NCBI RefSeq assembly: GCF_030684315.1
Contig: NC_081396.1
Span: 2,108,001-2,172,000 of the forward strand
Length of the DNA stretch: 64,000 nt
Origin: Stegostoma tigrinum
Taxonomy: Eukaryota
Direction of reading: 5' to 3'
Positions 1,700 to 55,926 of this stretch are shown one piece after another. The translations under genes were made by a program, and so were the position numbers. How positions within the stretch are numbered: the stretch's first letter is position 1; each line of letters begins with the position of its first letter. The notes under the pieces were generated by a model that saw only the letters and a list, made by a program, of their open reading frames with translations, was not told where the DNA came from and did no database searches.

Positions 1700-2019
1700 G
1701 AGGAGAGATTGCAATAGAGAGAGTGCATGAAGCTGAACGTAGATAAAGACCAAAGTACGCTATCAGAAGCTGATAAGATGCCACTGACTGCTCCGAAACC
1801 AACACAGGCGATTGTTTAATCCGAGATGATTGGCACTAATACAGAAAACTACCAGAAGATAGAGATGTACAGCCAGAGACATACACAGAAACCCGGGCTC
1901 CACGGTGTATCCTCAGTGGGTAGATACAGTTTTATTTCATCACATGGACTGTTCGAGGATTCTTTCAGCATTACATTGACAGTTTAAAACCATACTCGTC
2001 AGAAAGCACGTATTTATGT

Positions 2020-3400: not shown

Positions 3401-3519
3401 TCCTCATTGAACAGTACAGTTTTGATGGTGCAAAAGACGTTTTGCTGTGCTGTAAACGGCTTTGACTGTATGACTCTGTATATCAATATGCGTGTGACTG
3501 TGTCTAAACGTCTGTTTGT

Positions 3520-3561
3520 GCACTCTCGTGCGTGTGTGCGTGTGCGTCTGTGTGTGTGTGT

Positions 3562-3610
<49 letters not shown>

Positions 3611-3735
3611 TGTGTGTGCGTGTGTTTTTCTTTGTCTTTGTGAGAGAGCAAAATAGAGAGAGAGAGAGAGTGGGGAGAGAGATGGGTAGATAAATAGAGA
3701 TAGATAGAGAGAGAGAGAGACAGAGAGAGACAGTC
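3520..3735. repeat. (TG)n microsatellite followed by (GA)n/GATA repeats
   Basis: Directly visible; the homologous TG tract in copy B is the N run 40501-40651. Confidence 0.97.
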
Positions 3736-4786
3736 TCTCTCAGAGTTGGCTGAGATAAAAGTTACAACGGTTAGAAAGCTTCATCTGGGGTGGCTGTCGA
3801 TAGATCAATCAGGCCACAGTTTATTTCCTGATTATATCACCTGATATATTTTGTGGTCCAGTGCCAGACTCTGGCATATTTTAGCTGCTACACTCGCACA
3901 ACTTGGCACAAAAAGGCCAGCAAAATATAGGGCCATACAGTGCATATTTATTATGCTCCTGAAGCTCCTCTGTGAAATAAATTTTAGAAAATTTTTTCTT
4001 CATCCCCGACACTTGTGGAGGATTCCAATAATGTAAATGTGGGCTGCATGTCTGGGGGCTGTATGTATCAGTGTAATATGCAACATCTCTATGTTGTCTC
4101 AGAGGAGCAGGTCATCGATGCCACTGTCACTTCTGTTCCAAAGTTTTTGAGCAGAGCGATGATTCACAGAGTCTCCGTTATTTGGATCTGAAACAATTGA
4201 GAATTTATGCTTCCTTTTTTGCCTCTAATAAATAAGAACACTGGGTTCATGGAATGCCCAAGTTTGGTGCTTTTATAGAGAACTCAGAGTCACGTTAACA
4301 TCACGTACTTGTCAGAAACCCGCCACAAATAAACCAAATGATGAGTATGTGCAATGTGAAATGACTGATGGGTGTTGGGAGGTGATAATTCTAAATTGCA
4401 CACTCACACGTTGCTGAGATCTCTGCGCATGTGTTCAGTTGACCTTCCTGTGTTGCCATTGGTTCGGTGAGACAGCAGTTGGACCTCAGTGGATGGAAAC
4501 AGCTTGAGATAGATTGCAGGCAGATCCCTTACACCCGACATCCAACTCAAATTTTCTCCCTCACAATACAAACACAGCACTCATTGGGAACAACAAATGT
4601 AAAAGTTTTACCACTGAATTAATCTCACACCTAAATATCTCAACTGCCTGCTCACTCACATCCACGCTCACAAGCAAGGGCAGTGTGGTGACTTGGTGGT
4701 TCGCACTGTTGCCCCACAGTGCTTAGAACACAGAACACAGAACAATACAGCACAGAACAGGCCCTTCACCCCTCAATGTTACCCTT

Positions 4787-4820
4787 GCTGACGTTTCGGG
4801 CCTAGACCCTTCATCAGAGA
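4787..4820 (-). ncRNA. Hammerhead-like motif, left arm of copy A
   Basis: Reverse complement of the 10171-10204 motif. Confidence 0.7.
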
Positions 4821-7800
4821 GGGGGATGGGGTGAGGCTTCTGGATTAAATAGGGAGAGAGTGGGAGGCAGACCAAAGATGGAGAGAAAAGAAGATAGGTG
4901 GAGAGAGTATAGGTGGGGAGATAGGAAGGGGAGAGGTCAGTCCAGTGAAGACGGACAGGTCAAGGAGGTGGGATGAGGTTAGCAGGTCGGAGATGGGGGT
5001 GCAGCTTGGGGTAGGAGGAAGGGAAGCGTGAGAGGAAGAACAGGTTAGGGAGGCAGAGACAGGTTGGACTGGTTTTGGGATGCAGTGGGTGGAGGGGAAG
5101 AGCTGGGCTGGTTGTGTGGTGCAGTGGGGGGAGGGGACGAATTGGGCTGGTTTAGGGATGCGGTGGGTGAAGGGGCGATTTTGAAGCTGGTGATGAACAC
5201 ATTGATGCCGTTAGACTGCAGGGTTTCCAGGCGGAATATGAGTTGCTGTTCCTGCAACCTTCGGGTGGCATCATTGCGGCACTGCAGGAGGCCCATGATG
5301 GGCATGTCATCGAAAGAATGGGAGGGGGAGTGGAAATGGTTTGCGACTGGGAGGTGCAGTTGTTTGTTGCGAACCGAGCGGAGGTGTTCTGCAAAGCGGT
5401 CCCCAAGCCTCCGCTTCGTTTCCCCAATGTAGAGGAGGCCACAACGGGTACAGTGGATGCAGTATACCACATTGGCAGATGTGCAGGTGAACCTCTGCTT
5501 AATGTGGAAAGTTATCTTGGGGCCTGGGTTCGGGTGAGGGAGTAGGTGTGGGGGCAAGTGTAGCATTTCCTGCGGTTGCAGCGGAAGGTGCCGGGTGTGG
5601 TGGGGTTGGAGGGCAGTGTGGAGCGAACAAGGGAGTCACGGAGAGAGGGTTCTCTCTGGAAAGCAGACAGAGGTGGGGATGGAAAAATGTCTTGTGTGGT
5701 GGGGTCGGACCTCTATACCCAGAATATTCAGACCCTTCAGCAGCATTTCTCCCTGCGAGTCCTGAAACAGACACTCGTAGCCATGCGCCGGCGCCTCCAC
5801 AGACTGCAATCCAGCCTGCCCCAGCTCAGAGCCTCCCTCTCCCAGAACTGCAAAGGGCCTCTGCTGTTTTTTATTCTCCGCAGGATCCACAGACTGAACA
5901 CCCAGTTTAACTCAGCTTTACTGGACACCAAAAATCGCAAGTACAACAAACTCACTGACCCCTGCCACCCACAAGAGGATTCCTGCGCCTCCCAAATCCC
6001 GAGTCTGTCCCTGCCCCTCCCCGGCCATGCACCCGCCGCCATTGACCATGAGGACACGGCCGGAGACTGCACCGATGACGTCACATCCGCCTCCGCCGGC
6101 CACACCACTTCCGGGACCGCGGCTGCAGTCACCACCTCCACTTCCAGTTACAACACCTCACACACCAGCCTCACCGCAGCTGCTGCCGCCCACCACGATA
6201 CTCCAACCGCCGACGGAAGACAGCCCACGGCCGATGCCGATGGAACCCTGCCCACGGCCGACGACCTCATCGGTCCGCCCACAACCTCCACAGCCAGCAA
6301 CCCCAGAGGAGACAGCCACACTGAACCCTGCCGCATCTTCACCATGCCCCCAGACCTCCGACTGACTGAGGACGAACGGTCAGTCCTTAGTAAGGGGCTC
6401 ACCTTTGTCCCCCTACAACCACACATCAACGAATACCAGTCACGATTGGACATAGAGCATTTTTTCCGCCACCTTCGCCTCCAGGCCTACTTCTTCAAGC
6501 AGGAGCCTGAGCCTCCCTCCACTGACCCCTTCACCCGCTTCAAACACAAGTCCTCCTCCTGGACACCACCCCCAGGCCTCCTACCCTCCTTCGACCTCTT
6601 CATCTCCAACTGCCGTCGAGACATTAACCGCCTCAACCTCTCCACCCCTCTCACCCACTCCAACCTCTCCCCTGCAGAACGGGCAGCCCTCCCCTCCCTC
6701 CGCTCCAACCCCAACCTCACCATCAAACCCCAAGACAATGGTGGCGCAGTGGTAGTATGGCGCACTGACCTCTACATCGCCGAGGCCAGACGCCAACTCT
6801 CCAACACCACCTCCTGCCGCCCACTCGATCATGACGGGTGTGGTGGTGTTGGAGGGCAGTGTGGAGCGAACAAGGGAGTCACGGAGAGAGTGGTCTCTCC
6901 AGAAAGCAGACAGGGGTGGGGATGGAAAAATGTCTTGGGTGGTGGGGTCGGATTGTAGATGGCGGAGGTTTCGGAGGATGATGCGTTGTATCCAGAGGTT
7001 GGTGGGGTGGTGTGTGAAAACGAGGGGGATTCTCTTAGGGCGTTTGTGGCGGGGGCGGGGTGTGAGGGATGTGTTGCGGGAAATACTGGAGACGCGGTCA
7101 AGGGCGTTGTCGATCACTGTGGGGGGAAAGTTGCGGTTCTTGAAGAACTTGGATATCTGGGATGTGCGTGAGTGGAATGTCTTATCGTGGGAGCAGATGC
7201 GGCGGAGGCGGAGGAATTGCGAATAGGGGATGGAATTTTTGCAGGAGGGTGGGTGGGAGGAGGTGTATTCTAGGTAGCTGCTGTAGTCAGTGGGCTTGAA
7301 ATGGACATCGATTACAAGCTGGTTTCCTGAGATGGACACTGAGAGATCCAGGAAGGTGAGGGATGTGCTGGAGATGGCCCAGGTGAACTGAAGGTTGGGG
7401 TGGAAGGTGTTGGTGAAGTGGATGAATTGTTCGAGCTCCTCTGGGGAGCAAGAGGCGGCGCCGATACAGTCATCAAATGTACCGGAAGAAGAGGTGGGGT
7501 TTGGGGCCTGTGTAGGTGCGGAAGAGGGACTGTTCCACGTTACCTACAAAGAGGCAGGCATGGCTGCGGCCCATGCGGGAGCCCATGGCCACCCCCTTAG
7601 TCTGTAGGAAGTGGGAGGAGTCAAAACAGAAGTTGCTGATGGTGAGGACGAGTTCGGCTAGGCGGATGAGGGTGTCGGTGGAGGGGGACTGGTCGGGCCT
7701 GCGGGACAGGAAGAAGCGGAGGGCCTTGAGGCCATCTGCATGTGGAATGCAGGTGTATAGGGACTGGACGTCCATGGTGAAGATGAGGTGTTGGGGGCCA

Positions 7801-10170
7801 GGGAATTGGAAGTCCTGGAGGAGGTGGAGGGCGTGGGTGGTGTCACGGACGTACGTAGGGAGTTCGTGGACCAAAGGGGAGAAAATGAAGTCCAGATAGG
7901 TGGAGATGAGTTCGGTGGGGCAGGAGCAGGCTGAGACGATGGGTCGACCAGGTCAGCCACGGTTGTGGATTTTGGGAAGGAGATAGAAACGGGCCGTGCT
8001 GGGTTGGGGAACAATGAGGTTGGAGGCTGTGGGTGGGAGGTCCCCTGAGGTGATGAGGTCATGAATGGTGTTGGAGATGATGGTTTGGTGCTCGGGTGTG
8101 GGGTCATGATCGAGGGGGCGGCAGGAGGTGGTGTTGGAGAGTTGGCGTATGGCCTTGGCGATGTAGATGTCAGTGCGCCATACTACCACGGTGTCACCAT
8201 TGTCTTGGGGTTTGATGGTGAGGTTGGGGTTGGAGCGGAGGGAGGGGAGGGCTGCCCGTTCTGCAGGGGAGAGGTTGGAGTGGGTGAGAGGGGTAGAGAG
8301 GTTGAGGCGGTTAATGTCTCGAAGGCAGTTGGAGATGAAGAGGTCGAGGGAGGGTAGGAGGCCTGGGGGTGATGTCCAGGAGGAGGACTTGTGTTTGAAG
8401 CGGGTGAAGGGGTCAGTGGAGGGAGGCTTAGGCTCCTGGTTGAAGAAGTAGGCGTGGAGGCGAAGGTGGCGGAAAAACTGCTCTATGTCCAATCATGACT
8501 GGTATTCGTTGATGTGTGGTTGTAGGGGGACAAAGGTGAGCCACTAACTAAGGACTGACCGTGCGTCCTCAGTCAGTGGGAGGTCTGGGGGCATGGTGAA
8601 GATGCGGCAGGGTTCAGTGTGGCTGTCTCCTCTGGGGTTGCTGGCTGTGGAGGTTGTGGGCGGACCGATGAGGTCGTCGGCCGTGGGCGGGGTTCCGTTG
8701 GCTTCGGCCGTGGGCAGGGTTCCGCTGGCGTCGGCCGTGGGCGGGGTTCCGTCGGCGTCGGCCGTGGGCGGGGTTCCGTCGGCGGTTGGAGTATCGTGGT
8801 GGGCGGCAGCAGCTGCGGTGAGGCTGGTGTGTGAGGTGTTGTAACTGGAAGTGGAGGTTGTGACTGCAGCAGCGGTCCCAGAAGTGGTGTGGCCGGCGGA
8901 TGCGGATGTGACGTCATCGGTGGAGTCTCCGGCCGTGTCCTCATGGTCAATGGCGGCGGTGCATGGTCGGTGAGGAGCAGGGACAGACTTGGGATTTGGG
9001 ATGCGCAGGAATCCTCTTGTGGGTGGCAGCGGCCAGTGAGTTTGTTGTACTTCCGATTTTTGGTGTCCAGTAAAGCTGAGTAAAACTGGGTGTTCAGTCT
9101 GTGGATCCTGCGGACAATAAAAAACAGCAGAGGCCCTTTGCAGTTCTAGGAGAGGGAGGCTCTGAGCTGCAGCAGGCTGGATTGCAGTCTGTGGAGGTGC
9201 CGGTGCATAGCTGCGAGTGTCTGTTTCAGGACTCGCAGGGAGAAACTCTTCTGAAGGGTCTGAATATTCTGGGTATAGAGGTCCGACCCCACCACCCAAG
9301 ACATTTTTCCATCCCCACCCCTGTCTGCTTTCCAGAGAGAACTCTCGCTCCGTGACTCCCTTGTTCGCTCCACATTGCCCTCCAACCCCACCACACCCGG
9401 CACCTTCCCCTGCAACCGCAGGAAATGCTACACTTGTCCCGACACCTCTTCCTTCACCCCTATCCCAGGCCCCAAGATGACTTTCCACATTAAGCAGAGG
9501 TTCACCTGCACATCTGCCAATGTGGTATACTGCATCCACTGTACCCGTTGTGGCCTCCTCTACATTGGGAAACCAAGCGGAGGCTTGGGGACCGCTTTGC
9601 AGAACACCTCCGCTCAGTTCGCAACAAACAACTGCACCTCCCAGTCGCAAACCATTTCCACTCCCCCTCCCATTCTTTAGATGACATGTCCATCATGGGC
9701 CTCCTGCAGTGCCACAATGATGCCACGCGAAGGTTGCAGGAACAGCAACTCATATTCCGCTTGGGATCCCTGCAGCCTAATGGCATCAATCTGGACTTCA
9801 CCAGCTTCAAAATCTCCCTTTCCCCCAACACATTCCTAAACCAGCCCAGTTTGTCCCCTCCCCCCACTGCACCACACAACCAGCCCAGCTCTTCCCCACC
9901 ACCCACTGCATCCCAAAACCAGTCCAACTTGTCTCTGCCTCCCTAACCTGTTCTTCCTCTCACCGATCCCTTCCTCCTACCCCAAGCCGCACCCCCATCT
10001 CCTACCTACTAACCTCATCCCACCTCCTTGACCTGTGCGTCTTCCCTGGACTAACCTCTCCCCTCCCTACCTCCCCGCCTGTACTCTCTCCACCTATCTT
10101 CTTTTCTCTCCGTCTTTGATCCGCCTCCCCCTCTCTCCATATTTATTCCAGAACCCTCACCCCATCCCCC

Positions 10171-10204
10171 TCTCTGATGAAGGGTCTAGGCCCGAAACGT
10201 CAGC
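10171..10204 (+). ncRNA. Minimal hammerhead ribozyme-like motif of the Penelope terminus
   Basis: CTGATGA-a-GGGTCTAGGCCC-GAAA-CGTC: both core boxes, stem II and a palindromic ACGT stem III. Minimal hammerheads are an established feature of Penelope terminal repeats. Confidence 0.7.
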
Positions 10205-10941
10205 TTTTGTGCTCCTGAGATGCTGCTTGGCCTGCTGTGTTCATCCAGCCTCACATTTTGTTGTCTTGAATGTTTCATATAACCAGTCCAATGGAGCCCC
10301 GAACATCCTGCCAAGCTAAATGCTTTGCACACCCTGCACGATCTGTCAGCACCAAGAATCGTGCCCCACCAAGGCCCTGCACGATATCCCACTCTTCTCC
10401 ATTATGTTGATCAAGAATTGCTCTTCCACATGTTCTTATGAAAGAACGTAAGGTTAAATAAAAAATAAGAGCATGTGAAATATGAGCCGGAATCGACGCT
10501 TCCAGTGTGCCCCATTGAGATTAATTCACTGCGCAGATTACAGCATCCGGCTAAATTCACTTGGTCCACAGCAGGGCACACGGTGATCACGAAATTCAGA
10601 TCATGAGCCTTTTTTTCTGGAAACAGTGGCAGTCTGAGGATACGAAATGGGTGGAATACTCCAATTCGAGACGATCACACAACATAACGCCTGCTGTTTG
10701 AACTCCTCCAGTTCCAAGCCTGACTAATGCTGACCAATGTTTTTGTTTCTGTTCAAGGTTTTCAGACGGAAACGAAAAGCTTTACCCAACAGTTGTCAAC
10801 TTCTTGATCACAAGTCTGTTTTGTTTGATAAACACTACTGCATTTCCTAGCGTTCATGTTGTTCCCCACTCACACTTCCACATGACTAATTGTCTTACCT
10901 TCCTTGTTTTCACTTGCTGTGTGCTTGCCGCTACCTTTCAG

Positions 10942-15590: not shown

Positions 15591-16041
15591 ATGAAAACTG
15601 ATGTCATGGGTACCCTGAGAACATTACTGATAATCGTTACTATTCTGCATGGTGAGGCTGAACTAAAACCAGCACTGAGTATTATTTTGGTTACATTTAC
15701 TGACATGCTTTCAACAACTTTTTCAAATTTGTTACAGGAACGAGTAGTCAAGATTCAGTTTTTCAGAGCCCACCTCATTTATCGGCAGAGGAAGGACAAA
15801 TGGTAATGTTGAACTGTAGTTACGAATCGTCGGGTGCTCCTATTCTCTTCTGGTACGTCCAGTATCCTGGGGAAGCTCCGAGATATTTACTGAAGAGGTA
15901 CAAGAATGAAGACGCGGACAGCTCACCAGATTTCCGTGACCGGTTTTCTGCCAATTTGGACAAAGTCAATAAAGTGGTTCCTTTGAGAATTAATGAAATC
16001 CGTCTGTCTGACTCAGCCAGCTATCACTGTGCTATGAGTAA
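15591..16041 (+). CDS. TRAV: Apparently functional TCR alpha/delta V segment, copy A: leader exon 15591 (or 15606)-15651, V exon 15738-16041
   Basis: Leader MGTLRTLLIIVTILH-g|gtgag, 86-nt intron, tacag|GTSSQDSVFQSPPHLSAEEGQMVMLNCSYESSGAPILFWYVQYPGEAPRYLL...RFSANLD...LSDSASYHCAMS. Open frame followed by an intact RSS. Confidence 0.95.
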
Positions 16042-16080
16042 CACACTGATACAGAGACCCAGACAGCCCGAACAAAAACC
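16042..16080 (+). other. 23-bp-spacer recombination signal sequence
   Basis: CACACTG + 23 nt + ACAAAAACC (consensus nonamer). Confidence 0.96.
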
Positions 16081-16329
16081 TGAAAGGCTCTCTTCCCTCC
16101 CTTGTCTGTATCAGATCTATAACTTTTACTACGAATTGTTAATATGATCAAAACCACAGTACAAAGAGCACATCACATTTTGGAACTCTTTCGATTGTGC
16201 AGAATGCAGGTCATTCAACATAAACTGCCTGCTTCAAGCAGCTGCGAGTTTTATTCATGGTCAGCGAGCAACTCGTTTAATAGAATGTTGTGGTAGTGTT
16301 ACCATAACAGTTTACCATAACCCATCAGT

Positions 16330-24640: not shown

Positions 24641-25086
24641 TGTCAAGTTCGTTTTTGGAGACCCTCACGGATTTGCTGCAATAACAAGACACTGACCTGT
24701 TTAGAAAAACACGGATCATTTTATTACAGAGCAAGTACAAGCTGTGGAGAATCACTGGACTGAACCCGGCACAGAGTGCAGAGTTTCGCAGGTAATTCTC
24801 CTCGAGCAGCGGATAAGTCCCCACTTTTCATACTTTACAAAAGACGTGATACATAAATCGATTTGACAATTTACAATGACATGATGCATAAAACAATTAC
24901 GACAATAGACAAAAACAGGATACCAAGCAATTATTACATCAACAACATAAAAGACCAGGATGCAGTATCGATTGCTCGTGAAGTAGCTGCCAATGCGAGG
25001 AGGCGATTTTGAGTTGTTGTCCGGGACAGGTTGTGATTTCAAGTTGCCAGTGTGTCTGGCTAGTTCAAAGTCAGTGCCCTGGCCCC
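24641..25086 (-). repeat. ERV 3' LTR (portion shared with the 5' LTR)
   Basis: Begins tgtcaagttcg on + (the ..CA end on -); aligns with 30023-30434. Confidence 0.9.
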
Positions 25087-28000
25087 TTTGTCAGCGACAG
25101 AAGTTACATGCTTTGCAGGTTTCAAACCTTTACAAATTGTCGTCATTGTGCTGTTCCCCAGGGCGCAGAGTCCACATATAAGGTAATTCCGATTTTTTTT
25201 GCGGCCACCACCCCAGGGGAGCCTCCCAAGCTGACAGTTCCCAGGAAGTCGTATTCTCAAGGAAAAGCCCAAGGCAATCGGGTTCCGCCATGCAGAGCAA
25301 GACTCCCATCTCAAGAAGCATGTGACAATTCGCCGTTGAGTTCGTGCTTGTTGGGGACAAGGGACTGTGAGGGGCCCAATGGTCCCAGCACCAAACGGTG
25401 CTGGCAGATTTGGATTAGCATTTATGAAGGTCCCGTTAAGGAGGAAAACGAATCCCTTTTTTAGCCTAGTAGCAGGTAACAGACTCACATATTTCTTGAT
25501 AGCTCCTCCAGGAGGATTGGCTCTTATATGGATGGAAGCTTGGGGAGTTAAATGGAAATTACCCGTTGTCTTTTTTTTATATTGTTGCTATTGCAATCCT
25601 CACAAGTCCACTGTATGCCCGGGGTCACAGTTATTGGCTTAGTTTCCAAGCAAGGGTAGTTCAACAATCCTCCTCTCGTGGTGCAATTTCTGTTTGTGCA
25701 CCGATGGGGCCAGGAAACATTTTGGGGGTGATTAGTAACTCGAGCATGCACACAACAAGTACCAGATCCATTAAAGCAAAACGGATAGCTGTTGGGACTT
25801 GAACAGTTAGCCCCGTCCTTCTCATGCCCAGGTCTCGTGTCCCCACAACCAGAGAGACCACTAACGACCAGTTTCACACATGTACCCTGCACACCCCTCG
25901 TCCAAGTTCCCCTCTCCCTTCTGCAAGGCTTACTGGAATACTCTCCTTCATAAAGCTGAGCTTTAGAGTTCCAGGCAGGTGTTGCAACAAATACCACTTC
26001 TCCGGACCGTGCTAGTGGGTAATATGCTGTCCGATTCCCGTGCAGCTGGACGTGTGTTCTATAAAACAGATTGTTCTGCTGGCCATGCATGGGCAGAATA
26101 ACATTCAGTCCAAAGGTTAACCGCACGCTGATGAGGAAATCCATCATTTACAGTCACTTAGGTGGATCCAGCTATTCTGTCCGTCATCTTGAAGAGCGGT
26201 TGGAGTCTGAAGAAGCACATTGGGACAGTCCTTTCCACCTTTGTCCAAGCTTGGAACGACCCCAGTCCCAGACAAGTACAAAATCTCCGATCTGCGGCCA
26301 CAAAGATTGATCCTGAATCTCGAGGTATTGTTCCAGTGTCTGTGAAGGTGGTCTGAAGGTGCATTTCACCTGCGAATGGAGAAACTTTAAAGATGATGTT
26401 AGTTGTCGGAAGTATCTTTGCACTTCTTCTCCCATCACATTGAGGTTAATTTGGGTGGGTGGGCTGACATTGGCCTCCCATGGTGTTCTGCTGGGTCGGC
26501 CATAGACTATTTCCGCTGCTGAGAACCCGGTAGTAGAGTGGTGTGCTATTCGCATGTGATACAAGGCTCGTGGAAAATCCTTTAACCAATTAAGGCCGGT
26601 TTCTGATGTCGACGTGGTCAGTTTAGTTTTAATTGTTCCATTAGCTCTTTCCACTATCCCTGCTGCCCGAGGGTGGGAGGCACAGTCGAATTGTTGTTGA
26701 ATGAGTAATCAGGAACATAGTTCCTGATTAATTTTCCCGAGAAAGTGAGGGCCGTTGTCCCAACTAATTTGTTGCGGTACTCCAAACCTTGCTATTACTT
26801 CGGTAAACAACAGTTTTACTACTGTTGAGGCTTTGTTGTTTGTCATTGGTAAAGCCTCTGTCCATCTCCTGAATCCATCTGCAAGGACAAGACAATATTT
26901 ATAACAGTTTACGCGCGGCAGTTCAATAAAATCTAGCTGAATGCATTCAAAAGGTTCACCTGCAAGGGTGATTTTCAACGTGAGGATCTCACCCCCTGAC
27001 CCACATTGTTTTGCTGGCATGTGGGACAAGATACTCTCCGAGATTGTGCTGCCTCAGTCAGTCTGGGGTTCCAGCAGTACGGAGCATAATACCACTCATT
27101 CCATCCTTGACAAGGTGGGTGTCAGAATGCAGACAGTCAACAAGCATAGGTAATAAAGTATCAGATACACACACTTGGCCGACTGGGGTAACCCAAAGGC
27201 CAGCGGACGCAAAATGCAAATATCCATGCGCCTTCCAAATATTCTTTTCAGAAGCAGGGGCGTCCCCCTGTAAGTGCCGAACAGTGACCATATCTGACAT
27301 GACCGTCTTGTCTGAAGTCGTGTGATGTACCACCAGCTTAGTCATAGAGAATATAATAAAGGTTTGGTCTGCAGCAGACTGTTTAGTAGCCCGATCTGCG
27401 CGAGCGTTGCCCCAAGTGACTCTAGAATCAACAAAGGCATGGGCCGTGCATTTGATCATAGCCAATTGTTTCGGGAGGAGGATTGCCTGAAGGTTTTTAA
27501 CAGACAGGGAATTGTGGATGGGTGTACCTGACGACGTTACAAATCCACACTGGGTCCGGAGAGGGGAGTGGGGCATCAGAAAGGTCCGGGCAGGGAGAGG
27601 TCAGGAATTGGTTCCTCAGCAGGCAGTCATGTGGACGTTCGCTCAGAAATGCTGCTGGGTTAATAGTGGAGCAGGAAGCGATAAGGAACAAATCGCAGGG
27701 AGAATCTGGGAACAAGGAGGATAATGCCTGAGCTACAGTGTCCAGACGAGTGGAGTATTCGGCAACTAGTTGTTATAATTCAAGTTTAAAGGGCCTATTG
27801 TCACCCTATCAGTGTCGGTATGATGTCTGTGCGTGTGTAAGTGATGGGAGGACCACAAGGTGTAGGACAGCCTCAATACCCACTCCACAAGATGATTGCT
27901 ATCAGATAGGAGTAAGGGCAACAGGGTGAATACACAGGAGGAACCTCTGCTCTGTGTCATGTCTCATTTGCACAGTGTCACAATATCCCATTTACCAAAC

Positions 28001-30000
28001 TGAACCAGGGAGGCAGTATGGGCACTAACATTGCAATGGTGTCCGGAACGGAGAGAGACAGGGGCAGGAGGGGAAGAAAACTCTCGTTTGTTGAAAAAAT
28101 TACCAAGCAAGAGTTGGATTTATACATGCTCAAAATAAATTAACCAAATTTACCATACACAAAAATCAGAAATTCTTGGGTAAAAAAATTAATTAATGTT
28201 GCAGGTGGGCCCTAGGACCCAGCGGAGCCACAGCTGTCGGAGAAACCTCAAGTTTCAGGACGTGTCGATTACCTGGAGATGTGGTTGTGAATTTCAAAAC
28301 AGTCGCGTGTGCCATTGATAGAACGGCGCTATCCTGCCTTAAAGCACGGGCGGGGGGCAGAATTTCATGGTGCTGCAGATCTCGAATGGTTTCTGGTACA
28401 GTAAACAGGTATTGGTGGGTCGAGTAGGCTGGAACCGAGACTAATGTTTTCCCGGGCTTCTCTTATGGGTTTTAAAAGGATCCTGTCGTCCCTCTTTTTG
28501 TTCACGACCGGTCTGGTCTGCGTCATGTTTGTCTGTTCAGTTTTGGATCGGGTACGACAGGAGATAGGGTCTGCACAAGTTTGTCGGGGGATTCATGTGG
28601 GCTGACTACTGAAGGGCTTGGGGATTCTATAGGAGGTTTGGTTTGGTCAGCGTACGGCGGCGGTTGCTGGGACTGATGGCAGTGTTGGGGTGCCTGCAGA
28701 TGTAGATTGGCCAAGGGCGGTTAGGATTGTGGAGGGTGTAGTGGTCCCGATGGGAAAGAGGGGTCCTTCCTCAGGCGTCCTCGTCTTGTTCATCTGTGTC
28801 ATAAATTTGGAACAAGATCGGCATGCCAGATATGTCAGGAGGTACCTCCATTTTTATTTTGTTTTCTGCCTACCGCTCTAGCCCCCGTTCTTTGTCTCGT
28901 TGTTCTTTCTCCTGCCTTTCTTGGGTAACACTTTCCCTTTCATTATCTCATGATCCTCACACTGCAGTTTTAAAGTTTCCCCTCATCATCACAGGCACTG
29001 ATCCCTCTCCAAATGGCCAGTTTTGATTTGTCAGTCAGCTCCTCAGCTCTCTTTCCCAAAAATGACATTAACCCTTTCCATCTCCTCCCTGTATGGCATG
29101 TCCATCGTGCTTCTTCTGCTTTAGTACATAAATCTATATCCCACGTTGCCCCCATTGGCCAATTATCATTTCCCAATTTTTTGTATAAGCATGCTGACAG
29201 ACGTCTGTACTCTACTTCATTTTTGGGGTCACCCTGGCATAACCGATGTAAAGGACTGCCGACACACTACTTATCCAGTGTTTGTCCAATTTTTGCCTTT
29301 TGCTGTTCTTTTTTATTTCTTAGCACTTTCACTTTTTACTATCTCTATATACTGCAGCAGAGTCCTTTGTCTCAACACCCACTTCAGTGTCCTGACCTAC
29401 ACGTGGGGTATTTGTCCTCTTAACAACTGGTCTAAGCCAGGGTGGTTGAAACAGACAGACACTGTAACTACTCTATACCTCCGTCTTCTACTAACCCCAC
29501 TCCCTTTTCCCTCTTGCCCGACACAGGGTTCACCACCCCCCCACCCCCCGACCCCGGTCACCAGGGGAAATCTATCCTCCGGGATTTTAAAAATTACCAG
29601 TTATCTGACGTGAGGACTCTAACCCCGGCCACCGGGGGATTCTAACCTCCCGGATTTATTTACTCAGTTATCTGCCCTGGGGGCTCTAACCCCGGCCACT
29701 CGGAGACTCTAACCTCCCGGATTTCTTGAAACAGTTCCACCGGGGTCTCGAACCTCCCGGATTTCTTTACTCACCTGGGGACTCGAACTTCCAGGCTTTA
29801 CTGATTTAGCAGTCATCCAAGACCATGAGTTGTCTCGGGTTCCATCAGTACAGAGCCACGCAGGGGCAAGGAGTCGCACGGGTGGCAGGTTAGTGAGAGA
29901 GACCAAGGTGAATCGTACCTTGCGGGCCCATCCGTCTCACTGCACCGACACGCGAACGATCACTTATTCAGCCCTCCACGTGATACTGCTGTACATTTTG

Positions 30001-30020
30001 GAACCCTGCTCGTTGCGCCA
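30001..30020 (-). promoter_or_regulatory. Primer binding site complementary to tRNA-Ser(UGA)
   Basis: Plus strand gaaccctgctcgttgcgcca versus the vertebrate tRNA-Ser(TGA) 3' end GAACCCTGCTCGCTGCGCCA (from memory, 1 mismatch); 2 nt from the LTR end. Confidence 0.85.
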
Positions 30021-30022
30021 AA

Positions 30023-30434
30023 TGTCAAGTTCGTTTTCGGAGACCCTCATGGACTTGCTGCAAAAACAAGACACTGACCTGTTTAGAAAAAAACACAAAT
30101 CATTTTATTGCCAAGCAAGTACCAGCTGTGGAGAATCACTGTACTTCACCCGGCACAGGGTGCAGAGTCTCGCAAATAATTCTCCCTGACTAGCGGACAG
30201 TCCTCGCTTTTCATACTTTACAAAAGACATGATACATAAAACAATCACGACAACAGACAAAAACAGGATACCAAACAATTATTACATCAACAACATAAAA
30301 GACCAGGATACAGTATCGATTGCTCATGAAGTAGCTGCTAATGGCAGGAGGCGATTTCGAGTTGTTGTCGGGGACAGATTGTGATTTCAAGTTGCCAGTG
30401 TGTCTGGCTAGTACAAAGTCAGTGCCCTGTCCCC
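30023..30434 (-). repeat. ERV 5' LTR, probably truncated on the U3 side
   Basis: Adjacent to the PBS; similarity to the other LTR stops at gtgccctgtcccc. Confidence 0.9.
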
Positions 30435-36397: not shown

Positions 36398-38688
36398 ATG
36401 CACGAACCAGTCATTGCCCCCTTCTTTGTCATTTGTTGTTTAATTCTCGCTGTGTTTGGTGCCCCTGGTAACGCACTCATGCTTCAGAAAATTATTTTTG
36501 TAATTGTGTATTTCCAGAAATATATTCTTTCCCTTTCAGGATTTGGCAGAATTTTTGCAACATGCAGCATTTCCAGTTTAAGGGAATCCAACTGGTCTCC
36601 AGTGTGTATAATAGTTTATGGGACACTATCTGAGCTGTGGCAATTCATCGTGTATTACTGAAAATTTGATTTTTATGAAAGCCAATGCGTTCTTGAATGT
36701 CAAATGTTCTGTGCTTACAAAAAAAATAGTCTCTTATACGCTGAATGACGAATTGTGATGATTGAGCATGCATGATTATTAAGCTGCACTATTGCCATAT
36801 CCCAAATTGCATTCCAATTGAGCAAAATGAAACTTGGCGTTGTAGTCCATTGTAGGATTAATAGTTTATCAGAATGCAGCAAAATCTCGTTCTGACCATG
36901 TATCATATCTGGAGTTCCCAATAATCGTGGCATTGTTCATGTCATTTTCGGAATAACTTAGATGTTCGTTTAAAAGTGTGAATATGCAAAATTTTCAAGC
37001 TCTCATTAATTGGCTCCTCTATTACAAGGTCCCCCATATTTGACATAATTATATTTTTGAAATACAATTACCCAGAAAAAATTGCTTCAGAATTATTCGG
37101 AGCAGCAATTGCACATCCTATCACAGCATGTCACTTTATGTTGCAAATATCACAGGAAAATTAGTGAACAAGTTTAATCCGAAGACGAATGAGATATTGC
37201 GAAACAAAAGTTCTAAAAGGGACTTCTGAAAGAAGGGGACAGAAGTAGAACCGCTGAGTGGAGAACTCCAGTGATTTGGGCTTTACTAGTTAATCTGTTC
37301 CTGACAGAGTTGAAAGTATCAATGAGAGCGATGCACGGGAGACATCAGCACAGTTAAGAATAGAATTCAGGCAGTTGTATGATGGTGCAGGAACATATGT
37401 GGAGAGAATCTGGAGCATGTGAAAACTCAAAGGACCAGATTGGTCATCGCTAATGAGGATGCAACGTTCATGAAGGTTTGTGGGTGACAGTATATCTGGG
37501 GCTTCAAATAAATAGGTTCATGAGCACCACATTATTCCATTCATTCTAAGGTAAGAAGTTGGTTCAGGAAATTTTCTAAGTGATGAAACAGCGATGTCAA
37601 TTCTTGTGACTTATTGCATTGATAGAGTTTTGACGCTACATTGGATGTCAATCACTTGTCAGTTTTTCCACAACAGGCAGAGACTTGAAGTGGCAGGGGG
37701 TTGGTTGAAAATTGTTTCATAAAAGATTGTATGAAGGATGTTTGGAACCAGTTCCACAATGTCTTTCTCTTTTGATCTCTCACAGCCAACTTGCTTGCTG
37801 TCATAATCCTATCTCGAGGACGATGCGGTCTTTCCCAATGCATCACTTTCTACCTGGTGGCGATTGCAGTCACTGATTTTCTTGTCATCATCACTGCAGT
37901 AATCTTCAACCGAATCAGCCGCATGTACTTCCGAGAAAGTGTTTTGTCCACCACTCCTGCGTGCACTTTCAGCGTTTTGCTGGCCTATATCATTCGGGAT
38001 TGCTCAGTCTGGCTGACTGTCGCCTTTACCATTGACCGTTCAGTGGCCATCTGCTTCCAGAATTTGAAGACCAGATACTGGACAGAGAAAACTGCATCTT
38101 TGGTCATCGGAATAATCTCTGCCCTGTGTTGCATCAAGAACATCCCATTCTACTTTATCTATGAACCCTTATACATCTTCGATGAGGTGTCCTGGTTTTG
38201 CAATGTAAAAGCCATCTTCTATATTTGGCCAGCTTGGCAGGCTTATGATTGGTTCTTCCAGATCTAAACTACTTTTCTCCCATTCTTTGTCATTCTGATG
38301 CTTAATACCCTGACGATGAAACAAATCCTAGCAGCCAACAGAGCTCGCAGGAGACTCCAAGGTGCAGAGATGCAACAAGTCCCAAAGATGGCCAACCGCA
38401 GGAGGTCTATTACTCTTCTGTTCACCATCTCTCTCAGCTTCCTCCTACTGTGGGCACCTCTTGTCGGGCATTTCATTTTTACACAGCTTAAAGCGAAGAG
38501 CTACTTTGGTGGTCTGAATTTCAGTGATCCGCAGTATATCTTCCAAGAGATGACCAACGCTTCTTCAGTTACTAAGTTCCTGCAACAACGTCTTTATTGA
38601 TGCAATCTCTCAGAATACGTTTCGACAGGAGCTAAAGATCATTCTGATATACCCCTTTGTCATCCTCATCAATTGTTTTAAGCAGTGA
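36398..38688 (+). pseudogene. GPR139-like GPCR, copy B: exon 1 36398-36467, exon 2 37786-38688; TAA at 38265-38267 and a +1 frameshift near 38559
   Basis: MHEPVIAPFFVICCLILAVFGAP-g|gtaac splices in phase 1 to cacag|cc aac ttg, giving GAPANLLAVIILSRGRCGLS (TM1). Confidence 0.88.
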
Positions 38689-43046: not shown

Positions 43047-43400
43047 TTAACCTTGCAGCTGATTGCAACTGAGCTGTTCACTTTTACCAGTCACGTCTAA
43101 CTCAAATGAATGATTTAACTTTGCAAGTTTGACACAGATTGATGACTGCTGCTGGAAATGATAGATTGCATGTAAAAAAGAAATCAGTTGCCCAGACTTC
43201 ATTCTCTTCATGACGATTGGATAATCTAGTGTTCTGCCTCCTGCAGGTCCATTTTTCCATCAAAAAATCACAACCTTCCCCACCCAGATGAATGTGTCAT
43301 ATGAGAGATAATGGGAACTGCAGATGCTGGTGAATCCAAGACAACAAAATGTGAGGCTGGATGAACACAATAGGCCAAGCAGCATCTCAGGAGCACAAAA

Positions 43401-43434
43401 GCTGACGTTTCGGGCCTAGACCCTTCATCAGAGA
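43401..43434 (-). ncRNA. Hammerhead-like motif, left arm of copy B (a second copy with core CCGATGA at 43840-43873)
   Basis: gctgacgtttcgggcctagacccttcatcag on the + strand. Confidence 0.7.
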
Positions 43435-46400
43435 GGGGGATGGGGTGAGGGTTCTGGAATAAATAGGTAGAGAGGAGAAGGCGGACCAAAGATGGAGAGA
43501 AAAGAAGATCGGTGGAGAGAGTACAGGCGGGGAGGTAGGGAGGGGAGACGTCAGTCCAGGGAAGACGGACAGGTCAAGGAGGTGGGTTGAGGTTAGTAGG
43601 TAGGAGATGGGGGTGCGGCATGGGGTAGGAGGAAGGGATGGGTGAGAGGAAGAACAGGTTAGGGAGGCAGAGAGAGCTTGGACTGGTTTTGGGATGCAGT
43701 GGGTGGAGGGGAAGAGCTGGGCTGGTTGTGTGGTGCAGTGGGGGGAGGGGACGAACTGGGCTGGTTTAGGGATGCCAAGATAATAAAATGTGAGGCTGGA
43801 TGAACACAGCAGGCCAAGCAGCATCTCAGGAGCACAAAAGCTGACGTTTCGGGCCTAGACCCTTCATCGGAGAGGGGGATGGGGAGAGGGAACTGGAATA
43901 AATAGGGAGAGAGGGAGAGGCGGACCGAAGATGGAGAGTAAAGAAGATAGGTGGAGAGAGTATTGGTGGGGAGGTAGGGAGGGGATAGGTCAGTCCAGGG
44001 AAGACGGACAGGTCAAGGAGGTGGGATGAGGTTAGTAGGTAGCTGGGGGTGCGGCTTGGGGTGGGAGGAAGGGATGGGTGAGAGGAAGAGCCAGTTAGGG
44101 AGGCAGAGACAGGTTGGACTGGTTTTGGGATGCAGTGGGTGGGGGGGAAGAGCTGGGCCGGTTGTGTGGTGCAGTGGGGGGAGGGGACGAACTAGGCTGG
44201 TTTAGGGATGCAGTAGGGGAAGGGGAGATTTTGAAACTGGTGAATTCCACATTGATACCATGTGGCTGCAGGGTTCCCAGGCGGAATATGAGTTGCTGTT
44301 CCTGCAACCTTCGGGTGGCATCATTGTGGCACTGCAGGAGGCCATGATGGAAATGTAATCTAAAGAATTAGAGGGAGCGTGAAAATGGTTTGCGACTGGG
44401 AGGTGCAGTTGTTTGTTGCGAACCAAGCGGAGGTGTTCTGCAAAGCGGTCCCCAAGCATCAGCTTGGTTTCCCCAATGTAGAGGAGGGCTCAACGGGTAC
44501 AGTGGATGCAGTATACCACATTGGCAGATGTGCAGGTGAACCTCTGCTTAATGTGGTAAGTCATCTTGGGGCCTGGGTTAGGGGTGAGTGAGGAGGTGTG
44601 GGGGTAAGTGTAGCATTTCCTGCGGTTGCAGGGGAAGGTGCCGGGTGTGGTGGGGTTGGAGGGCAATGTGGAGCGAACAAGGGAGTCACGGAGAGAGAGG
44701 TCTCTCTGGAAAGCAGACAGGGGTGGGGATGGAAAAATGTCTTGGGTGGTGGGGTCGGACCTCTACACACAGAATATTCAGACCATTCAGAAGTGTTTCT
44801 CCCTAGGAGTCCTGAAACAGACACTCGCAGCCATGCGCCGGCACCTCCACAGACTGCAATCCAGCCTGCCGCAGCTCAGAGCCTCCCTCTCCCAGACCTG
44901 CAAAGGGCCTCTGCTGTTTTTTATTGTCCGCAGGATCCACAGACTGAACACCCAGTTTTACTCAGCTTTACTGGACACCAAAAATCTTCAGTACAAAAAA
45001 CTCACTGGCCCCTGCCACACACAAGAGGATTCCTGCGCCTGCCAAATCCCGAGTCTGTCCTTGCCCCTCGCCCACCATGCACCCGCCGCCCTTGACCATG
45101 AGGACACGGCCGGAGACCCCACCGATGACGTCTCATCCGCATCCGCCGGCCAACTGCTTCCGGGACCGCTGCTGCAGTCACCACCTCCACTTCCAGTCAC
45201 AACACCTCACACACCAGCCTCACCGTAGCTGCTGCCGCTGACCCCGATACTCCAACCGCCGACGGAACCCCGCCCACGGCCGACGCCGACGGAACCCTGC
45301 GCACGGCCGACGCCAACGGAACCCCGCCCACGACCGACGACCTCATCAGTCCGCCCACAACCTCCACAGCCAGCAAGCCTCGAGGAGACAGCCACACTGA
45401 ACCCTGCCGCATCTTCACCATGCCCCCAGACCTCCCACTGACTGAGGACGAACGGTCAGTCCTTAGTAAGGGGCTCACCTTTGCCCCCCTACAACCACAC
45501 ATCAACGAATCCCAGTCACGATTGGACATAGAGCAGTTTTTCCGCCACCTTCGCCTCCACGCCTATTTCTTCAACCGGGAGCCTAACCCTCCCTCCACTG
45601 ACCCCTTCACCCGCTTCCAAGACAAGTCCTCCTCCTGGACACCACCCCCAGGCCTCCTACTTTCCCTCGACCTCTTCATCTCCAACTGCCATCGAGACAT
45701 TAACCGCCTCAACCTCTCCACCCCTCTCACCCACTCCAACCTCTCCCCTGCGGAACGGGCAGCCCTCCCCTTCCTCCGCTCCAACCCCAACCTCACCATC
45801 AAACCCCAGACAATGGTGGCGCAGTGGTAGTTTGGCACACTGGGGGATTCTCTTAGGGCGTTTGTGGCGGGAGCGGGGTGTGAGGGATGTGTTGCGGGAA
45901 ATATGGAAGACGCGGTCAAGGGCGTTGTCGATCACTGTGGGGGGAAAGTTGCGGTTCTTGAAGAACTTGGATATCTGGGATGTGCGGGAGTGGAATGTCT
46001 TATCGTGGGAGAGGATGCGGCGGAGGCGGAGGAATTGGGAATAGGGGATGGAATTTTTGCAGGAGGGTGGGTGGGAGGAGGTGTATTCTAGGTAGCTGTG
46101 GGAGTCAGTGGGCTTGAAATGGACATCGATTACAAGCTGGTTTCCTGAGATGGAGACTGAGAGATCAGGAAGGTGAGGGATGTGCTGGAGATGGCCCAGG
46201 TGAACTGAAGGTTGGGGTGGAAGGTGTTGGTGAAGTGGATGAATTGTTCGAGCTCCTCTGGGGAGCAAGAGGCGGCGCCGATACAGTCATCAAATGTACC
46301 GGAGGAAGAGGTGGGGTTTGGGACCTGTGTAGGTGCAGAAGAGGGACTGTTCCACGTTACCTACAAAGAGGCAGGCATAGCTGGGGCCCATGCGGGTGCC

Positions 46401-48986
46401 CATGGCCACCCCCTTACTCTGTAGGAAGTGGGAGGAGTCAAAACAGAAGTTGCTGAGGGTGAGGACGAGTTCGGCTAGGCGGATGAGGGTGTCGGTAGCG
46501 GGGGACTAGTCGGGCCTGCGGGACAGGAAGAAGCGGAGGGGCTTGAGGCCATCTGCATGTGGAATGCAGGTGTATAGGGACTGGACGTTCATGGTGAAGA
46601 TGAGGTGATGGGGGCCAGGGAATTGGAAGTCCTGGAGGAGGTGGAGGGCGTGGGTGGCGTCACGGACGTAGGTAGGGAGTTCGTGGATCAAAGGGGAGAA
46701 AATGGAGTCCAGATAGGTGGAGATGAGTTCGGTGGGGCAGGAGCCGGCTGAGACGATGGTTCGACCAGGTCAGGCACGGTTGTGGATTTTGGGAAGGAGA
46801 TAGAAACGGGCCGTGCTGGGTTGGGGAACAAAGAGGTTGGAGGCTGTGGGTGGGAGGTCCCTTGAGGTGATGAGGTCATGAATGGTGTTGGAGATGATGG
46901 TTTTGTGCTCGGGTGTGGGGTCATGATCGAGGGGGCGGTAGGATGTGGTGTTGGAGAGTTGGCGTCTGGCCTCGGCGATGTAGAGGTCAGTGCGCCATAC
47001 TACCACAGTGTCACCATTGTCTGGGGGTTTGATGGTGAGGTTGGGGTTTGAGCGGAGGGAGGGGAGGGCTGCCCGTTCTGCAGGGGAGAGGTTGGAGTGG
47101 GTGAGAGGGGTGGAGAGATTGAGGCGGTTATTGTGTCAACGGAAGTTGGAGATTCAGAGGTCGAGGGAAGGTAGGAGGCCAGGGTGTGGTGTCCAGGAGG
47201 AGGACTTGTCTTGGAAGCGGGTGACGGGGTCAGTGGAGGGAGGGTTAGGATCCCGGTTGAAGAAGTAGGCGTGGAGGCGAAGGTGGCGGAAAAACTGCTC
47301 TATGTCCAATCGTGACTGGCATTCATTGATGTGTGGTTGTAGGGGGACAAAGGCGAGCCCCTTACCAAGGACTGACCGTTCGTCCTCAGTCAGTGGGAGG
47401 TCTGGGGGCATGGTGAAAATGCGGCAGGGTTCAGTGCGGCTGTCTCCTCTGGGGTTGCTGGCTGTGGAGGTTGTGGGCGGAGCAATGAGGTCGACGGCCG
47501 AGGGCGGGGTTCCGTTGGCGTCGGCCGTGGGCAGCGTTCCGTTGGCGTCGGCCGTGGGCGGGGTTCCGTCAGCGTCGGCCGTGGGCTGGGTTCCGTCGGC
47601 GGTTGGAGTATCGTGGTGGGCGGCAGCAGCTGCGGTGAGGCTGGTGTGTGAGGTATTGTAACTGGAAGACGAAGTGGTGACTGCAGCAACAGTCCCGGAA
47701 GTGGTGTGGCCGGCGGATGCGGATGTGACGTCATCGGTGGGGTCTCCGGCCGTGTCCTCATGGTCAATGGCGGCGGGTGCATGGTCGGGGAGGGGCAAGG
47801 ACAGACTCGGGATTTGGGAGGCGCAGGAATCCTCTTGTGGGTGGCAGCGGCCAGTGAGTTTGTTGTACTGAAGATTTTTGGTGTCCAGTAAAGCTGAGTA
47901 AAACTGGGTGTTCAGTCTGTGGATCCTGCGGACAATAAAAAACAGCAGAGGCCCTTTGCAGGTCTGGGAGAGGGAGGCTCTGAGCTGCGGCAGGCTGGAT
48001 TGCAGTCTGTGGAGGTGCCGGCGCATGGCTGCGAGTGTCTGTTTCAGGACTCGCAGGGAGAAACTCTTCTGAACGGTCTGAATATTCTGGGTGTAGAGGT
48101 CCGACCCCACCACACAAGACATTTTTCCATCCCCACCCCTGTCTGCTTTCCAGAGAGAACTCTCTCTCTGTGACTCCCTTGTTCGCTCCACACTGCCCTC
48201 CAACCCCACCACAACCTGCACCTTCCCTGCAACTGCGGGAAATGCTACACTTGCCCCCACACCTACTCCCTCACCCGAACCCAGGCCCCAAGATAACTTT
48301 CCACATTAAGCAGAGGTTCACCTGCACATCTGCCAATGTGGTATACTGCATCCACTGTACCCGTTGTGGCCTCCTCTACATTGGGGAAACCAAGCTGATG
48401 CTTGGGGACCGCTTTGCAGAACACCTCCGCTTGGTTCGCAACAAACAACTGCACCTCCCAGTCGCAAACCATTTCCACTCCCCCTCCCATTCTTTAGATG
48501 ACATGTCCATTATGGGCCTCCTGCAGTGCCACATTGATGCCACCCGAAGGTTGCAGGAACAGCAACTCATATTCCGCTTGGGAACCCTGCAGCCTAATGG
48601 TATCAATGTGGACTTCACCAGCTTCAAAATCTCCCTTTCCCCCACCGCATCCCTAAACCAGCCCAGTTCGACCCCTCCCCCCACTGCACCAAACAACCAG
48701 CCCAGCTCTTCCCCTCCACCCACTGCATCCCAAAACCAGTCCAAGCTGTCTCTGCCTCCCTAACCTGTTCTTCCTCTCACCATCCCTTCCTCCTACCCCA
48801 AGCCGCACCCCCATTTCCTACCTACTAACCTCATCCCACCTCCTTGACCTGCCCGAATTCCCTGGACTGACCTCTCCCCTCCCTACCTCCCCGCCTGTAC
48901 TCTCTCAACCGATCTTCTTTTCTCTCCATCTTTGGTCCGCCTCCCCCTCTCTCCCTATTTATTCCAGAACCCTCACCCCATCCCCC

Positions 48987-49020
48987 TCTCTGATGAAGGG
49001 TCTAGGCCCGAAACGTCAGC
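48987..49020 (+). ncRNA. Hammerhead-like motif, right arm of copy B
   Basis: ctgatgaagggtctaggcccgaaacgtcagc. Confidence 0.7.
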
Positions 49021-49757
49021 TTTTGTGCTCCTGAGATGCTGCTTGGCCTATTGTGTTCATCCAGCCTCACATTTTGTTGTCTAGAATGTGTCATATAACC
49101 AGTCCAAAGGAGCCCCGAACATCCTGCCAAGCCAAATGCTTTGCACACCCTGCACGATCTGTCAGCACCAAGAATCGTGCCCCACCAAGGCCCTGCACGA
49201 TATCCCACTCTTCTCCATTATGTTGATCAAGAATTGCTCTTCCACATGTTCTTATGAAAGAACGTAAGGTTAAAAAAAAAATAAGAGCATGTGAAATATG
49301 AGCCGGAATCGACGCTTCCAGTGTGCCCCATTGAGATTAATTCACTGCGCAGATTACAGCATCCGGCTCAATTCACTTGGTCCACAGCAGGGCACACGGT
49401 GATCACGAAATTCAGATCATGAACCATTTTTTCTGCAAACAGTGACAGTCTGAGGATACGAAATGGGTGGAATACTCCAATTCAAGACGATCACACAACA
49501 TAACGCCAGCTGTTTGAACTCCTCCAGTTCCAAGTCTGACTAATGCTGACCAATGTTTTTGTTTCTGTTCAAGGTTTTCAGACTGAAACGAAAAGCTTTA
49601 CCCAACAGTTGTCAACTCCTTGATCACAAGTCTGTTTTGTTTGATAAACCCGACTGCATTTCCTAGCGTTCATGTTGTTCCCCACTAACACTTCCACATG
49701 ATTAATTGTCTTACCTTCCTTGTTTTCACTTGCTGTGTGCTTGCCGCTACCTTTCAG

Positions 49758-54508: not shown

Positions 54509-54959
54509 ATGAAAACTGATGTCATGGGTACCCTGAGAACATTACTGATAATCGTTACTATTCTGCATGGTGAGGCTGAACTAAAACCAGCACTGAGTAT
54601 TCTTTTGGTTACATTTACTGACATGCTTTCAACAACTTTTTCAAATTTGTTACAGGAACGAGTAGTCAAGATTCAGTTTTTCAGAGCCCACCTCATTTAT
54701 CGGCAGAGGAAGGACAAATGGTAATGTTGAACTGTAGTTACGAATCGTCGGGTGCTCCTATTCTCTTCTGGTACGTCCAGTATCCTGGGGAAGCTCCGAG
54801 ATATTTACTGAAGAGGTACAAGAATGAAGACGCGGACAGCTCACCAGATTTCCATGACCGGTTTTCTGCCAATTTGGACAAAGTCAATAAAGTGGTTCCT
54901 TTGAGAATTAATGAAATCCGTCTGTCTGACTCAGCCATCTATCACTGTGCTATGAGTAA
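54509..54959 (+). CDS. TRAV: Apparently functional TCR alpha/delta V segment, copy B: leader exon to 54569, V exon 54656-54959
   Basis: Same as copy A except R>H and S>I in FR3. Confidence 0.95.
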
Positions 54960-54998
54960 CACACTGATACAGAGACCCAGACAGCCCGAACAAAAACC
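54960..54998 (+). other. 23-bp-spacer RSS
   Basis: CACACTG + 23 nt + ACAAAAACC. Confidence 0.96.
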
Positions 54999-55926
54999 TG
55001 AAAGGCTCTCTTCCCTCCCTTGTCTGTATCAGATCTATAACTTTTACTACGAATTGTTAATATGATCAAAAACACAGTACAAAGAGCACATCACATTTTG
55101 GAACTCTTTCGATTGTGCAGAATGCAGGTCATTCAACATAAACTGCCTGCTTCAAGCAGCTGCGAGTTTTATTCATGGTCAGCGAGCAACTCGTTTAATA
55201 GAAAGTTGTGGTAGTGTTACCATAACAGTTTACCATTACCCATCAGTAACTGAAATCAAAGATAAGCTGCATTGAAAGAAAACACCCGATGGACAATTCT
55301 ATTTTGCACAGAGCGTTCGTGTGTGGAATGAATTGCCAGCAAATGTGGGTACAGTAACAGTGTTTAAAAGACATTTGTTTAAACACTTGGATGATGAAAA
55401 AAAGTGATTAGGGATATAGGACAAGCACAGTCAGTTGGGAAAAGTTTAGTTTCGGATTACGCTCGACTTAGACAGTTTGAAACGAAGGGTTTGTTTTCGA
55501 GCCATGTCAGTCGGTTACTCTAATTGAATACAAAAGCAGTTTCACTATCATTAACTGCTCCAAAGCCGCTTCGTTGTTCAGTCAAGTTAATTTCATTCCA
55601 AAATTGATAGATCAATGGATGCTAAAGGAAACAATTGTCGTAAAGCTGTCAAGTTTGTGAGAGTTGTACAAACTTCACTGAGTGCAACGGCAAGTTCAGT
55701 GAACTAAATGACCTTCTGCAGCTCCTGTTTTCAACGTTGTATTGACAATAGATCTGACGTAATGGACTGGAGAACAAAGCAACTGTGAGATGATTGGAGG
55801 CACATTTGCGAATCTGTCAGAAATATCCATCTGGCAGGGAGACAAGATATGACTCAATGTCAGCTCTGAGATGAGCCAATTCAGCTTCATCTCGCTCTCT
55901 GCATTTCTGCCATCAGTTCTGCAAAC

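Follow-up and report, generated by a model that had tools for sequence, protein, structure and literature searches.

We find that an insertion of a Penelope-like element (PLE) in Stegostoma tigrinum carries the same inversion junction, J1, on both of its long inverted arms, within a single pair of short direct repeats. The insertion, here called B, lies in the window, as we call the whole 64,000-nucleotide stretch analysed (NCBI RefSeq GCF_030684315.1, contig NC_081396.1, positions 2,108,001 to 2,172,000), and has a paralogue, copy A, in the same window. The repeated J1 is the only unusual feature, the rest following the published norm for PLEs. From this anatomy we infer, with a slight lean in its favour, an insertion of the standard head-to-head kind, with a single switch of template from one of the element's own arms to the other at or soon after insertion; we lean this way because the central junction, J2, lies inside the arm homology, because only one long cDNA is needed, and because the arms recombine.

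Self-comparison places the inverted arms of B at 43776-45842 (2067 bp) and 46988-49083 (2096 bp), 92% identical by blastn in a gapped alignment, and between them a spacer of 1145 bp that encodes RT, in keeping with the arms of ~2 kb and RT spacer of ~1.2 kb described in a first-pass annotation of this DNA. The domain order given there, 3' end/GIY-YIG (-), N-terminus (+), RT (-), N-terminus (-), GIY-YIG/3' end (+), agrees with tblastn of full-length relatives (Table 1). The reported 13-bp direct repeat, GAATGTGTCATAT, is likewise exact at both ends and flush with both element termini; its first base is assignable to the element end (…TCTTG), leaving 12 bp unambiguous. A 12-mer match in the corresponding 17-nt windows was seen in 0 of ~200,000 random flank pairs, and the 13-mer is probably a target-site duplication (TSD). 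Copy A was said to keep the right 13-mer, and does so with one mismatch. The 15-mer across J1, GGGGTCGGACCTCTA, occurs four times in the window, once in each arm of A and B, as had been stated of an inversion junction common to both arms, and the layout of inverted arms, spacer and J1 on both arms is present in both copies. The left end is longer, as described, by 34 nt rather than ~40, and a 439-bp direct repeat of the 3' end, adjoining the inner pLTR, had been overlooked there; of the pLTRs, the right one of B is nearest to this outer copy, with 13 differences over 366 columns.

Table 1. Features of insertion B and of its paralogue, copy A, in window coordinates.
Feature	Position	Strand	Remark
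Copy A, paralogue of the same insertion	4787..10267		left end and left flank deleted
J1 in copy A	5709/5710 and 9281/9282		
Central junction J2 and third linker copy, copy A only	6832..6952	-	J2 at 6835/6836
Right target repeat of copy A	10268..10280	+	one mismatch
Left copy of 13-bp direct repeat, probable TSD	43290..43302	+	12 bp unambiguous
34-nt tail, left end only	43303..43336	-	
Outer pLTR, 439 bp, 5'-truncated	43337..43775	-	hammerhead core motif 43404-43431
Inner pLTR, different subfamily	43776..44211	-	hammerhead motif 43843-43870, one core base changed
Left-arm linker (Cx4CxxC) and GIY-YIG endonuclease, frameshifted	44212..44759	-	
J1, left copy (44759/44760)	44751..44765	+	
Duplicated N-terminal ORF part, begins ~78 codons into ORF	44760..45842	+	P0039 residues 79-153
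Single-copy spacer, RT core and thumb	45843..46987	-	left border is a 257-bp deletion removing J2
Right-arm N-terminal ORF part, naturally contiguous with RT spacer	46988..48099	-	
J1, right copy (48099/48100)	48094..48108	-	
Right-arm linker and GIY-YIG	48100..48646	+	Pfam PF01541, E 0.0059, below curated cut-off
Right pLTR without tail	48647..49083	+	hammerhead core motif 48990-49017
Right copy of 13-bp direct repeat	49084..49096	+	

Judged by its sequence, the element is a dead PLE, probably of Neptune type, the clade being read from the linker motif. For what follows we divide it into a (N-terminus), b (RT), c (the first 121 bp of the linker) and d (the rest of the linker, GIY-YIG and pLTR). 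Tblastn of P0016, which carries Pfam RVT_1 and GIY-YIG, tiles all four segments at 40-59% identity; a Pfam search of the window's RT pieces alone gave no match. Three features of EN+ PLEs were found here: RT followed by a C-terminal GIY-YIG in one ORF, a pLTR in partial tandem with an inverted 5'-truncated copy, and a tail of 30-40 nt at one end, in this case the left. The linker motif CNRRKCYTC, in ORFs 44490-44762 and 9279-9680, conforms to the Cx2-5CxxC pattern between RT and EN that is described for Neptune and also for Nematis (available text of PMC8557442), and the vertebrates sampled in a 2026 preprint contained Neptune and Poseidon only, according to the part available. The element resembles the Neptune clade in its RT, linker motif, C-terminal GIY-YIG and vertebrate host, and differs from it in being a dead copy, broken and 5'-truncated, that lacks ~78 N-terminal codons (the match to P0039 starts at residue 79). 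Naiad and Chlamys were considered and rejected, as they need an N-terminal endonuclease and the EN here is C-terminal. At J1 itself, one copy truncated ~78 codons into the ORF meets another truncated in the linker; such a head-to-head joint between two 5'-truncated copies is ordinary for Penelope.

A regular expression finds the hammerhead core motif in five of five pLTRs; an Rfam search returned no match, and the motifs fold no better than shuffled sequences (z 0.05-0.70). Minimal dimeric hammerhead ribozymes have been described (PMC4209133). Among the matches listed, the nearest named proteins come from Stegostoma and Rhincodon, at 86-89% identity. A 27-bp tandem array in the N-terminal coding region (8629-8838 and 47446-47655) varies in copy number among the arms, and P0007, a Rhincodon "prostatic acid phosphatase-like" protein, ends in the N-terminal sequence of this element, probably through an annotation fusion.

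Copies A and B lie in a tandem duplication of 37-39 kb whose shared flanks differ by 0.5-2.9%. Divergence between the units (1-25082 against 36988-64000) is patchy, at 2.2-2.9% to ~16500 and 0.5-1.35% thereafter, which suggests that conversion has taken place between them. The order in copy A is rc(d) rc(c) J1 a J2 rc(c) rc(b) rc(a) J1 c d. In its centre, the N-terminal part runs to 6835, where c follows on the minus strand and continues naturally into RT. If the block rc(c) J1 a is taken away, what is left is rc(d c b a) J1 c d, the arrangement published as standard, in which one end bears a tail and a TSD is present. The arm/spacer border of B (45842/45843) corresponds to a deletion of 257 bp relative to A (A 6768-7024); B's centre is evidently a later deletion, and it is copy A that retains the original J2. 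Measured on B, 1.6 or 2.0 kb of left end and flank is missing from A. Copy A also has a stop-free frame of 464 codons (5564-6958, +) that spans J1 and J2 and is probably incidental.

Microhomology at J2 extends to three of four bases, and the right side of the junction falls within the arm homology, which is what the template-switch model requires. Within the 3315-bp unit, the two borders of J2 are the only places where the 9-mer CCACACCCG is found; 2.5e-5 of position pairs have a 9-mer in common. Self-priming at J2 through this repeat was rejected because the repeat is direct and not complementary. The middle linker copy shows 6-10 differences in 121 bp and the arm copies 2-6, too few to date the switch.

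Under the template-switch explanation, a long and a short 5'-truncated cDNA would have been joined head to head at J1 during insertion. A strand ending at the c/d border of the left arm would then have invaded the right arm by homology and been extended across J1 and over 1.12 kb of a. At J2 it would have rejoined the other end via microhomology, with the 9-nt repeat helping the rejoining and possibly tethering the ends. The tandem duplication of the 37-39-kb unit would have come later, then repeated conversion from arm to arm; later deletions would have cost A its left end and B its J2, and the foreign-subfamily pLTR in B would represent a further template or a later insertion. A homologous switch at inverted repeats followed by a microhomology joint is the two-step route described for DUP-TRP/INV-DUP rearrangements (available portions of PMC11293582). 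Those rearrangements, so far as the same portions show, share with copy A, explained in this way, one inverted-repeat switch, one microhomology junction and a triplicated segment (here c, 121 bp); the present case differs in its kilobase scale, in the use of a retrotransposon's own inverted ends as substrate and in its copy-number pattern, which is not their three-tier one. Inverted duplications formed by self-annealing at the ends of L1 insertions (bioRxiv 10.1101/2024.12.14.628481, in the part available) are similar in starting from a free 3' end, in their short microhomology and in lying within the TSD; there the duplicated sequence is genomic flank copied via small hairpins, and here it is element sequence with a 1.27-kb loop. 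Of the origin proposed in the first-pass annotation, a single TSD-bounded insertion with a fold-back step accords with these data; L1-style twin priming does not.

In a 5' inversion made by L1-type twin priming, an internal, inverted stretch of the element meets the target at one end. The right two thirds of the unit, rc(c b a) J1 c d with its 121-bp overlap, do resemble a 5' inversion with duplication, as would be expected if J1 came from twin priming on a single RNA and the left arm from a fold-back of its own. We nevertheless consider such an origin quite improbable: it does not fit because the 3' terminus of the element adjoins the target at both ends, and neither target end meets an internal inverted position. 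The left end, moreover, begins with the tail, the normal start of reverse transcription in the available text of PMC11167929, and the fold-back part is already contained in the template-switch explanation.

The arms of the insertion demonstrably exchange sequence. Divergence among the four arms is 5.3-7.1% over 1971 columns, and is no lower between orthologous arms than between the two arms of a locus; the spacer diverges by 3.35% between A and B. Among 29 informative sites, 15 group the arms by locus, 8 group orthologous arms and 6 pair them crosswise. Simulations without exchange gave means of 3-4.8, with a mean of 3-4.4 by-locus sites and a maximum of 10 in 1000 runs, compared with the 15 observed, and the site patterns are clustered along the arms (p 0.004). 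The crosswise class does not exceed simulated homoplasy (P 0.08-0.29). In addition, two non-family bases in GIY-YIG are common to both B arms and absent from both A arms.

We polarised the arm sites by the near-fixed family base in contigs, taking 25 sites from the best-supported 40 of 430 rows. Deviations are shared by all four arms at 4 of these, by three arms at 5, by the two right arms (AR and BR) at 1 and by both arms of A (AL and AR) at 5, two of the latter being gapped in BL; the other 10 are found in AR only. The 15 shared sites fit arms that were separate before the duplication, with ~70-75% conversion per locus, in a model with one parameter that ignores conversion before the duplication. 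Eight of the nine listed deviations in the spacer are common to A and B, and the insertion is therefore clearly older than the duplication.

These arm differences also bear on whether the structure might be an assembly or chimeric-read artefact, which we regard as extremely unlikely because the arms have diverged and two paralogues exist. A fold-back read would yield identical arms and not arms differing to this degree; two paralogues that have diverged both contain the structure, and in three of four runs right flanks of the A type and of the B type occur at 10380-10518. No contig spanning the stretch, no piece bridging J1 or J2 and no row on B's deletion or an empty site is among those listed, an absence that is no evidence either way.

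The sequences of the junctions fit equally well a second-generation retrocopy, which we hold to be possible but distinctly less probable than the template switch. Here a read-through RNA of an older inverted copy, with J1 already upstream of its pLTR-ORF junction, would have served as template; both target nicks would have primed cDNA at two internal start sites (with and without the tail), and both cDNAs would have crossed J1, stopped after 2.1-2.5 and 3.4 kb and been joined head to head at J2. The identical J1s, the one-sided tail and the TSD would all be explained by a single normal reaction. What is available of PMC11167929 describes reverse transcription starting internally at two sites, which bound the tail, with both target strands cut and extended, and active copies in which an inverted repeat lies upstream of the partial tandem are described in the accessible text of PMC2377424.

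We compared this possibility with family contigs from four runs (two samples of one study; three bisulfite runs left out) aligned to copy A 6700-10800. The family is very abundant, with 244,000-334,000 contigs per run, and contig depth drops ~100-fold from GIY-YIG to the N-terminus: long cDNAs are rare in this Penelope family. The template-switch model needs one long cDNA only, whereas the retrocopy needs two, from a rare transcript, and does not require J2 to lie inside the arm homology. A point in its favour is an opposite-strand family joint in the linker, 6908/6993, within 45 nt of the linker breakpoint of J1. One contig per run carries it, in four of four runs, at 40-130x the depth of flank contigs, so that inversion joints can be multiplied, apparently elsewhere in this genome; the depth is no copy number, and the runs represent two samples of one study. 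On the other side, one metagenome scan for J1 and one for the N-terminal start, in collections other than shark ones, each gave no match, and no protein among the matches listed (the best 150 of 2637, plus 3 and 7) has its best stretch across J1, which together weigh little; the polarised sites call for no changes private to a parent.

The same contigs bear on the alternative offered in the first-pass annotation, a palindromic master element in which the whole 5.8-kb unit is mobile and forms a subfamily. The whole unit does lie between one TSD pair with a pLTR at each end, and we found no support beyond this for such an element, which we judge improbable: A and B share their flanks and belong to a segmental duplication, no second locus turned up in the collections searched, the ORF is broken and lacks its 5' end, and three of the four bases common to all four arms are rare in family contigs. 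At these four sites the depth of non-family bases is 0-18, 0-21, 34-166 and 654-3992, by a count that is incomplete; depths of 0-21 at two of these sites equal about 0-2 single-copy contigs, and the last site, 6739, leaves some room.

The unit is not, as its sequence reads, the product of a single template, because one pLTR of B is foreign and both copies were changed later by deletion and by arm-to-arm exchange. We assign the inner pLTR of B to a different subfamily because its states, a 3-bp deletion among them, match P0001 and not the other four pLTRs; ~5-7% of family depth at 9999 carries the deletion. It would be either a later insertion in B or the trace of a second template.

Each tandem unit also carries one immunoglobulin V-set ORF (15704-16147 and ~54620-55000; Pfam E 3.8e-17), with an RSS-like signal with a 23-bp spacer after it, at 16042 and 54960. 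We take these, from their motifs, to be likely T-cell-receptor V segments and the unit to be part of a V array. An insert resembling an LTR retroelement or endogenous retrovirus, its ORFs broken, occupies 24641-30434 between repeats at 24641-25086 and 30023-30434 that are 87-93% identical, and includes an integrase core (Pfam rve, 26709-27053). A 7TM receptor ORF at 37776-38600 has a stop at 38267 and a second copy near the window start.

The available text of PMC8557442, PMC3846280, PMC2377424 and PMC8969392 treats as usual in PLEs the partial tandem, an inverted copy with a truncated 5' end, a tail of 30-40 nt on one side and the TSD, and the remark in the first-pass annotation that inverted termini are known for Penelope is well founded; the ends of this element are ordinary because inverted ends, tail and TSD are all published for PLEs. 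Complex EN+ PLE insertions in the accessible parts of the first three sources share with ours the head-to-head inverted 5'-truncated copy, the partial-tandem pLTR and the 30-40-nt tail; they also have a TSD and a hammerhead motif in the pLTR, with which the probable TSD and the core motifs here agree. Compared through their figure legends, they differ from it in that here an identical junction occurs twice and an N-terminal kilobase is duplicated inside the arms. The probable TSD is 12-13 bp here, compared with 8-10 bp in A. vaga PLEs in the text available. The permuted halves of A. vaga Pen3 are similar in that the 5' and 3' parts of one element overlap and are inverted; they stand on detached contigs, for which the available part of PMC3846280 reports neither flanks nor a TSD nor a repeated junction. 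Rearranged copies with long inverted repeats are mentioned in the part available of PMC3681739. We found no PLE with a repeated inversion junction in the literature covered, which is the text and legends of mostly open-access papers.

What we describe is a single dead insertion, which shows no sign of being functional or mobile and is a modest twist on a known pattern. Its arms indicate that the inverted arms of a Penelope element behave as a small palindrome with heavy arm-to-arm conversion, and the minor-subfamily pLTR inside the left arm of B may record one Penelope homing into another. The integration cycle of Penelope is partly known, and complex copies are among its few in vivo records; this insertion poses a clean two-way choice between a local template switch and a retrocopy of an inverted parent. 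Were the retrocopy true, Penelope inversion junctions would be heritable units that breed nested palindromes, and the insertion would be a genomic read-out of the model of internal initiation with two cDNAs, so far in vitro only.
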